Position numbers and translations under genes: made by a program. Below the pieces are notes generated by a model. The model saw only the letters and a program-made list of their open reading frames with translations, was not told the origin of the DNA and did no database searches. From assembly GCF_013167455.1 (NCBI RefSeq), contig NZ_CP038331.1: 6,675 nt of DNA; one strand, written 5' to 3'. Positions 6,191-6,589 of this stretch are shown piece by piece (the first letter of the stretch is position 1; each line of letters starts with the position of its first letter). The stretch is from Escherichia coli O157:H7 (GTDB lineage Bacteria; Pseudomonadota; Gammaproteobacteria; Enterobacterales; Enterobacteriaceae).

Positions 6191-6436
6191 TTAGCGGCGG
6201 CGCAGTGGTTGCCAGGTGAAGGTGTCATCCGGGTCCTGTCCGGCAGTCAGTGTGGCTTCTCGATTTTTGCTGGCCGTTCGTTCATCAAGAATGGCTTTAA
6301 GTATCCGTGCCCGGAGGCGTCGCTTTGTTTCCTGCGGCATTTTGTCCTTTTTCGTCAGCCCCATGGCACGAGCTTCAGCGGCAATGGCTTCTGCCAGTCG
6401 GCGCTCTTCGGCTTCGGTCAGTCTATGGCGTTTCAT
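6191..6436 (-). CDS. Hypothetical small basic protein (81 aa), function unknown
   Basis: Minus-strand ORF with GGAG 6 nt upstream of ATG at 6436 (an alternative in-frame ATG at 6466 has no Shine-Dalgarno). Protein-like composition (MKRHRLTEAEERRLAEAIAAEARAMGLTKKDKMPQETKRRLRARILKAILDE..., Arg/Lys-rich, predicted helical), whereas the overlapping plus-strand ORFs translate to Cys/Phe/Gly-rich low-plausibility sequence. No family recognised from memory. Confidence 0.45.
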   Translation of the reverse strand: MKRHRLTEAEERRLAEAIAAEARAMGLTKKDKMPQETKRRLRARILKAILDERTASKNREATLTAGQDPDDTFTWQPLRRR

Positions 6437-6589
6437 GGTGGTCTCCGGGTGTTTCTCTGGTGTCATAACAGTTTAACTGTTGGCTCTCTCCTTATGCTAA
6501 TCAGCCTTCTTTCATGCCTGTTGCCATTGAGTTTAAGAATGATTGGTTGTTTTTCTTGAGCGTTTTCACAAAAACGTAAATCCAGTGGG

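Follow-up and report, generated by a model that had tools for sequence, protein, structure and literature searches.

A probable plasmid-borne relative of YjbD in an exchangeable slot at the edge of cer in colicin D plasmids of Escherichia coli

Introduction

Gene modules bounded by Xer sites are an established concept in small plasmids, with examples including the ColE1-like plasmids which carry qnrB19 and the pdif modules. In ColE1, the "entry exclusion" genes exc2 and exc1 lie between the XerD arm of the Xer site cer and the colicin promoter and are transcribed towards cer. Here we describe an 81-aa open reading frame (ORF), called X below, which has the same slot and orientation in a ColE1-like, colicin D-encoding plasmid of pColD157 type from Escherichia coli O157:H7 (NZ_CP038331.1). 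The whole stretch of DNA which was analysed, referred to as the window, is this complete plasmid of 6675 bp; the window segment which we tested is 100% identical to around 30 E. coli plasmids of 6666–6676 bp from O157, O111, O103 and O177 strains.

Two described small helical proteins are relevant for comparison. Rop/Rom (PF01815) is the small helical hairpin of ColE1 replicons, an acidic protein of 63 aa which dimerises to a four-helix bundle and has no C-terminal tail. YjbD (DUF3811; b4023 in E. coli K-12) is a 90-aa protein with a pI of 10.2, encoded on the chromosome between rluF and lysC.

Results

Coding status and conservation of X

X runs on the minus strand from an ATG at 6436–6434 to a TAA stop at 6193–6191, and the same coding sequence is annotated in RefSeq as a "hypothetical protein" (WP_000820629.1). 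A Shine-Dalgarno sequence, GGAG (6443–6446, minus strand), is found 6 nt 5′ of the ATG, and CGGAG is retained in most close homologues. The encoded protein has a pI of 10.8, with 21 lysines and arginines against 13 aspartates and glutamates. This confirms the description in an earlier reading by a model, made from the sequence alone (the original prediction), of an Arg/Lys-rich 81-aa protein with a good Shine-Dalgarno. The same prediction placed the stop 12 bp from the XerD arm of the cer core; the two are indeed close, but the gap is 10 bp (6181–6190).

In alignments of X homologues the start of the 81-aa version is the conserved one. An alternative 91-aa version starting at an ATG at 6466 was rejected, as that ATG is missing from the homologous upstream regions of a Klebsiella locus (L004) and a Salmonella locus (L005; loci are numbered with the prefix L throughout). 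A search of 5.8 billion proteins produced 70 relatives of X, mostly of 81–82 aa, on plasmid-size contigs of E. coli, Salmonella and Klebsiella and with identities down to about 51–58%. When 1.84 billion cluster representatives were searched exhaustively, members with identities as low as ~40% were added and the family proved to be small (20 clusters at E ≤ 1e−3). With the distant member P0082 as the query, a word-indexed search of proteins recovered P0082 alone, and a scan of species-representative genomes gave only two loci, one of which is probably contamination. An X which is 100% identical was seen on a 6.8-kb contig labelled "Acinetobacter idrijaensis" (L019, JQCU01000264.1), which is most likely a contaminating E. 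coli plasmid of pColD157 type.

Across the family the MK(R/H) start and the length are kept, and invariant residues are spread over the whole protein. Pairwise dN/dS values among 12 distinct loci (Nei-Gojobori method) were mostly 0.1–0.4, with dS ranging from 0.06 to saturation; the two closest pairs gave 0.6–0.8. The sense frame of X is the only frame which lacks stops in all homologues, while overlapping plus-strand ORFs are broken elsewhere. Taken together, the conserved frame, start and length, the low dN/dS and the single open frame show that X is a genuine, conserved protein-coding gene. The original prediction had allowed that the ORF may be non-coding, which these data contradict; it had also proposed a check of conservation and of synonymous versus nonsynonymous change, and both came out in favour of a gene.

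It should be noted that disrupted X alleles exist in nature, being frameshifted, truncated or internally deleted. For example, slippage in an A9 run has given a 47-aa product (P0069) which is found on 22 contigs, and a truncated allele of pColD157 type is found on 7. Tolerated disruption of the frame had been named beforehand as a result which would speak against the gene; such alleles do occur, yet the intact form of 81–82 aa prevails among the retrieved sequences and the intact copies are under purifying selection. Because frame-disrupted natural alleles exist and sibling colicin D plasmids lack X (see below), the gene is accessory and dispensable. The A9 run itself corresponds to codons 30–33 (AAAGAAAAAAAAATG) of the Salmonella-lineage homologues L005 and L006 and coincides with the frameshift in P0069; it could indicate a slippage-prone or phase-variable X, or an assembly artefact. 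Further overlapping ORFs of 55, 116 and 86 aa (6463–6630, minus strand; 6209–6559, plus strand) were treated as spurious because the plus-strand frames are broken in homologues and the 55-aa ORF begins inside LexA boxes.

Predicted fold and relationship to YjbD

An AlphaFold2 model of X (mean pLDDT 80) contains helices at residues 8–25 and 35–65, separated by a loop (26–34) and followed by a tail which ends in FTWQPLRRR. The C-terminal motif T-F-T-W-x-P-x-R-R-R is conserved: F73, W75, R79 and R80 are nearly invariant in the family and R81 is invariant. In this prediction the two helices form an antiparallel hairpin, from which a flexible linker leads to the conserved aromatic/arginine tail. 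Both this model and the pI support the earlier description of X as a probably helical, small basic protein. Searches of Pfam, NCBIfam, PHROG, PADLOC and PDB sequences gave no usable match to X, and within PADLOC and PHROG no anti-phage defence or phage family matched it at a meaningful E-value. The profile and structure-prediction searches which had been proposed for the protein yielded the two-helix model and a remote resemblance to YjbD/DUF3811.

This resemblance was examined at several levels. The AFDB50 entries identical to X (A0A0F6WGB9 and A0AAN3HVY0; Foldseek) carry the UniProt label "YjbD family (DUF3811)", as do two matches at about 40% identity, including A0A427KDZ2 (41%). The DUF3811 profile PF11656 matched 1 of 31 X family members at 1.3e−4 and three at ≤ 0.1. 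We aligned 19 YjbD orthologues, with b4023 of E. coli K-12 as the reference, and comparison of the X and YjbD families by hhalign gave a probability of 68% and an E-value of 4.7e−5 over 71 collinear columns (6–80 of X versus 9–83 of YjbD). The two proteins are similar in length and pI, and the predicted helices of YjbD (13–30 and 36–69, then a tail) resemble those of X. YjbD also has a C-terminal aromatic/arginine motif, FSWSANTSTRGRR, in the place of FTWQPLRRR, so that both families end in (S/T)F(S/T)W...R(G/R)RR; residues F78, S79, W80, R87, G88, R89 and R90 are invariant in the 19 YjbD orthologues. However, YjbD is chromosomal and ~87% conserved across genera whereas X is plasmid-borne and much more variable, and a K-R-R-x-R cluster which opens helix 2 is specific to the plasmid clade. 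On these comparisons X is a probable remote, plasmid-borne branch of the YjbD family.

The X cassette and its slot beside cer

The cer core of the window (6152–6180, plus strand) consists of the XerC arm GGTGCGTACAA (6152–6162), the central region TAAGGGG (6163–6169) and the XerD arm TTATGTTAAAT (6170–6180). The X gene and 107 bp of DNA upstream of it make up a 363-bp segment (6181–6543, minus strand) which begins at the outer end of the XerD arm. The nature of this segment is best seen by comparison with pF1273-2 (L065, NZ_CP038377.1), a colicin D plasmid of E. coli O157:H7 which belongs to a second family and which is 98% identical to window positions 3186–6180, then diverges, and realigns from 6544 at 87–90%. 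In plasmids of this type the backbone is 98% identical to that of the window and the colicin operon only about 90%. Segment 6181–6543 is the sole part of the window without a counterpart in pF1273-2, which holds exc2-exc1 in the same slot (6145–7192, 1048 bp). The comparison reveals a clean mosaic in which one breakpoint falls at the XerD arm, and the left breakpoint of the cassette is the exact outer end of this arm. Among the plasmids of PLSDB, cer-like DNA was found in 3647, with matches ending at 6180, and X in only ~40. Because of the swap in pF1273-2, and because cer homology ends at 6180 while X is rare, X and its 107 bp of upstream DNA are a discrete accessory cassette, bounded on the left by the outer end of the XerD arm. 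A second Xer core bounding the cassette on the right was not found in the window, and the right boundary (6543/6544) has no recognisable Xer site.

In ColE1 exc2-exc1 likewise abut the core, and in pF1273-2 they are a direct alternative to X. The original prediction had mentioned a stability or exclusion accessory factor: X does share the slot of exc2-exc1, but not their sequence, since tblastn over PLSDB, including ColE1 (NC_001371), gave no match to X in ColE1. In addition, Exc2 is annotated as a lipoprotein whereas inspection of the X sequence by eye shows neither a signal peptide nor a hydrophobic segment. Both exc1 and X are found on pKA04-6.

The closeness of X to the cer core, which had been remarked on beforehand, recurs in several diverged lineages. 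The X stop lies 5–10 bp from the XerD arm in the window and in L004, L005, L006–8, L026–29, L041 and L054, and in L063 a decayed XerD arm is found next to X. Beyond the XerC arm these plasmids have either full cer or unrelated DNA (the 3′ end of a ParE toxin-antitoxin), their upstream toxins differ, and hybrid cores adjoin X in L006–8 and L054. No core was found next to X in the close relatives L002, L003, L009, L038, L040, L046 and L062. We infer that the pattern at the junction fits block exchange at the core. This is similar to Xer-bounded modules in that the cargo ends exactly at the XerC/XerD core and that hybrid cores and alternative cargo occur at the junction; it differs in that the window has one core only, the mechanism by which X is exchanged being inferred. 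The length of the central region also varies, being 7 bp in the window and 8 bp in the metagenomic pColD157-like loci L048 and L061 (TTAAGGGG) as well as in ColE1 (TTAAGGGA), and this 1-bp difference could affect Xer strand exchange.

The explanation which we prefer for these results, and to which we give an even chance, is that X is a dispensable YjbD-like gene which occupies a slot prone to exchange at the edge of cer and whose small product acts in trans by binding nucleic acid or a host factor. The X protein would be the plasmid's copy of a small housekeeping protein of the host. It would bind RNA, DNA (irrespective of sequence) or a host factor through the arginine-rich cluster which opens helix 2 and through its F-x-W...RRR tail at the C-terminus; it would not be a repressor which recognises a palindrome. 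All DNA on the XerD side of the core would be exchanged as a block among ColE1-type plasmids, and any gene placed upstream of a lethal toxin/lysis operon would have to point away from that operon. The constant orientation of X, away from the toxin operon and towards cer, would then be explained by position itself.

Several observations weigh against this explanation. The window X protein had no match to PF11656 at E ≤ 10, the hhalign probability for the two families was 68%, below the usual level of 90% (and 35% when the X family was compared to a single YjbD), and a local HMM (hidden Markov model) built from the 19 YjbD sequences scored X family members at ≤ 15 bits. Binding in trans is suggested by composition and fold only. 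The literature on the X accession, DUF3811 and yjbD yielded nothing functional and no biochemical or genetic data, with nearly all yjbD matches concerning Bacillus Spx and the others being a single diet screen in C. elegans and a single study of G-quadruplexes. Neither a strict promoter scan, which found nothing, nor a relaxed one, which gave weak candidates only, produced a convincing promoter for X inside the cassette. Among distant homologues (40–50% identity), those in L016–18 and L022 lie 16–33 bp after mbeA/B/D genes on the same strand, and in L023 the X start codon overlaps the rop stop (ATGA); such relaxase and rop operon contexts point to a role specific to plasmids rather than to generic mimicry of the host. 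Finally, in all close relatives which we examined X diverges from an antibacterial toxin gene upstream of it, and a neighbour this constant could reflect a functional link which the slot does not capture.

Replication and mobilisation contexts

The relaxase and rop contexts raise the alternative that X is an accessory of replication control or of mobilisation, either as a Rop-like RNA-binding hairpin or as a relaxosome helper. In the window, RNAI is found at 2654–2759 (minus strand), rom at about 3641–3832 (minus strand) and mbeC/A/B/D at 3900–5811. Apart from the overlap with rop in L023 and the position after mbe genes in L016–18 and L022, this alternative is favoured by RNAI of a ColE1 replicon, which was detected in 9 of 17 scanned loci, partial contigs in many cases. 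Since the distant homologues lie after mbe genes or at rop and RNAI was detected in these 9 loci, the X family is a ColE1-plasmid accessory gene which has been placed in several operons. The hairpin of X, with its alanine-rich helix 1, also recalls Rop, and one distant homologue is translationally coupled to rop. However, X is basic and tailed where Rop is acidic and has no tail, the Rop profile PF01815 matched neither X nor any family member, and X has no sequence similarity to Rop or Mbe proteins. The contexts in question are single lineages of distant homologues (42–50% identity), X is also present on plasmids typed as non-mobilisable, and in pColD157, which has its own rom, X is apart from rop and mob and on the opposite strand. 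For these reasons we consider a role in replication or mobilisation unlikely.

L023 (2997–3445 and 3887–4533), a contig of 8.4 kb, contains two RNAI matches and two matches to C4 antisense RNA, the P1/P7-type immunity RNA. L003 (CP057981.1) and three similar IncF plasmids of 119–122 kb carry a ColE1-like segment (RNAI, rop, X and an EF-hand/DUF1311 operon) within a conjugative IncFIA/FIC plasmid, which suggests that they are cointegrates of a small X-bearing plasmid.

Toxin neighbours

In the window the neighbours on the far side of the cassette are the genes for colicin D (25–2118), its immunity protein (2115–2378) and lysis (2448–2594). Their SOS-controlled promoter (6590–6654, plus strand; −35 TTGACA at 6590–6595, overlapping LexA boxes at 6622–6654) is located outside the cassette, diverges from X and reads over the origin of the record. 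Across the loci, seven types of toxin were found beside X: colicin D, a klebicin-type tRNase, pesticin, a pore-forming colicin, an EF-hand/pesticin-like/LprI operon, a Lipase_3 protein with a lipoprotein, and a PAAR-motif ORF. Some of this cargo, on small ColE1-type plasmids, resembles type VI secretion effectors more than classical colicins (L024 1107–3158, L041 955–1461 and L009 1237–3884), examples being a 683-aa Lipase_3 protein followed by a lipoprotein, the PAAR-motif ORF, and an EF-hand_5 gene followed by pesticin-like and LprI-like genes.

X could accordingly be tied functionally to the toxin operon, modulating its expression or timing or protecting the producer, perhaps via supercoiling-coupled divergent transcription. 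The arrangement is certainly constant, as X is divergent from a toxin gene 109–330 bp away in every close relative examined, although the seven toxin types are unrelated and the intergenic regions fall into at least four non-homologous kinds. On the other hand, colicin D plasmids of the pF1273-2 type have the same operon and promoter without X, no operator is shared, and distant relatives of X are found without a toxin neighbour. The LexA boxes lie outside the cassette, at a distance of 175–280 bp from the start of X, and the EF-hand, lipase and PAAR contexts lack them; the idea that X is an SOS-controlled bacteriocin regulator was likewise downgraded by the colicin D plasmids which lack X. 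Because such operons without X exist, and because exc2-exc1 have the same orientation in the same slot, the positional explanation is sufficient and is favoured, and a functional tie to the toxins seems rather unlikely.

Possible effects on cer

Downstream of X lies the Rcd system of cer. By comparison with ColE1, which has TTGCAT-15 bp-TAAAAT at this position, the promoter Pcer of the window would be CTGAAT-15 bp-TAAAAT (6037–6063, plus strand), and the hairpin which encodes Rcd would lie at ~6071–6148 (plus strand). The 15-bp spacer of Pcer has been described previously (PMC5935869), and rcd is co-directional with RNAII (PMC2831885); Rcd is therefore convergent with X. No convincing terminator was found in the window between the X stop and the core, the sole terminator-like match there being the weak 7-bp hairpin of the XerD arm itself, which is not conserved in homologues. 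For transcripts from X, the next strong hairpin past the core is the anti-Rcd stem. On the minus strand the Rcd hairpin (6070–6130) has an equally strong stem, followed by AAAUUUUAA. The anti-Rcd stem could act as a bidirectional terminator for transcripts derived from X. A transcript of X which continued past the core would run antisense to Rcd and reach cer from the XerCD side. Rozhon et al. argued that transcription entering from this side could de-repress Pcer, and that plasmids avoid it (PMC2831885).

It is conceivable from this layout that X acts on cer, either through a transcript antisense to Rcd or through a protein which modulates XerC/XerD, as XafT does on TLC phage. The 5–10 bp between stop and XerD arm in at least seven lineages without an intervening terminator, the convergence with Rcd up to the anti-Rcd stem, the argument of Rozhon et al. 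on Pcer and the recombination at the junction which the hybrid cores of L006–8 and L054 show would all agree with such an effect. However, cer evidently works without X, which is present in only ~40 of 3647 cer-bearing PLSDB plasmids; the seven close relatives listed above have no adjoining core; and chromosomal YjbD is not near dif. Moreover, neither X nor its family members matched the Pfam entries for Xer activators or accessory factors (XafT/DUF3653, FtsK-gamma-like), and purifying selection acts on the protein and not just on the transcription unit, which read-through into cer cannot explain. An action on cer is therefore quite improbable. A more specific form, in which the X cassette is a plasmid modulator of Xer/cer which tunes the dimer checkpoint through a transcript antisense to Rcd and/or a protein acting on XerD, and promotes exchange, at a bare cer core, of the toxin cassette which X accompanies, is in our judgement very unlikely. 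If true, X would be the first accessory factor of a cer-type site to be encoded by a plasmid and would give the first functional handle on the orphan YjbD/DUF3811 family.

The upstream palindrome

The original prediction had drawn attention to a perfect 7-1-7 palindrome upstream of X, AACAGTT-T-AACTGTT (6467–6481), which is present as described and specific to the pColD157 lineage. The window contains 4 perfect palindromes with 7-bp arms and loops of 0–4, compared to 2.2 ± 1.9 in Markov-simulated sequence, and one or more would fall in a given 115-nt stretch with a probability of ~0.02, so that its position is mildly unusual; it is not conserved. Near the start of X, the window can be aligned with upstream regions from Klebsiella (L004), Salmonella (L005 and L026) and a metagenomic locus (L041). 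In all four the X-proximal piece GTTAAACTGTT (6467–6477) is retained, with the variants GTTAAAGTGTT in L005 and ATTAAACTGTT in L026, and the left arm of the palindrome differs. Within GTTAAACTGTT is TAAACT (6475–6470, minus strand), a weak match which is nevertheless the best −10-like hexamer of the cassette. The palindrome is thus a lineage-specific feature which overlaps a weak promoter element.

It had been suggested that the palindrome could be an operator, with X as an autoregulated DNA-binding regulator. X is small and basic, and the overlap of a perfect palindrome with the best −10-like hexamer, at a frequency of ~0.02 by chance per stretch, agrees with this. Since the left arm is unconserved and only GTTAAACTGTT is kept, in four out of four alignable regions beside X proteins of 65–90% identity, the operator idea is not supported. 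EF-hand-type loci whose X is ~84–90% identical to that of the window have 116–120 bp of unrelated upstream DNA, and a search for a shared operator found no 9-mer common to ten kinds of upstream region except in the Shine-Dalgarno area. In addition, no helix-turn-helix (HTH) or ribbon-helix-helix (RHH) signature was found in X by searches of Pfam, NCBIfam, PHROG and PDB sequences; the N-terminal K-R-x-R-L-T superficially resembles an RHH strand, but the model instead has a long hairpin with a 9-residue loop. Autoregulation through this palindrome is highly doubtful.

Other readings of the upstream region were rejected. As an RNA hairpin the palindrome has a minimum free energy (MFE) of −5.3 kcal/mol and is no better than shuffles (z = 0.07), and the changes in its left arm leave some G-U pairs but include no compensatory changes. 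A short upstream ORF seen by eye in L004, L026 and L005 lies in different frames in different lineages and has no counterpart in the window. The window also lacks a block of ~100 bp which, in the klebicin and pesticin plasmids (L004, L005 and L026), is inserted between X and the bacteriocin promoter (~150–200 nt upstream of X) and contains a short GC hairpin and a T-run facing the bacteriocin gene.

The last alternative, that the ORF is a chance open frame in GC-rich DNA, can draw on the other long plus-strand ORFs which overlap X, the lack of a strong promoter and the disrupted alleles, but is effectively refuted, with next to no probability left to it, by a length, start and frame which are kept down to ~40% identity, a dN/dS far below 1 and antisense frames which are interrupted among homologues.

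Discussion

Our results settle the status of the sole unassigned ORF of a plasmid which is widespread in Shiga-toxin-producing E. coli: X is a real gene rather than an artefact, and it does not appear to be a palindrome-controlled repressor. For a plasmid specialist these findings hold no major surprise. X accompanies at least seven kinds of antibacterial toxin gene on ColE1-type plasmids, and the clean natural swap of X for exc2-exc1 at the edge of the XerD arm helps to explain how bacteriocin and effector cassettes are shuffled among small plasmids. The probable relationship would also tie a plasmid ORF without an assigned role to YjbD/DUF3811, a highly conserved small protein of enterobacteria, and a dispensable plasmid paralogue on a 6.7-kb replicon would offer an easy genetic entry to the YjbD family.

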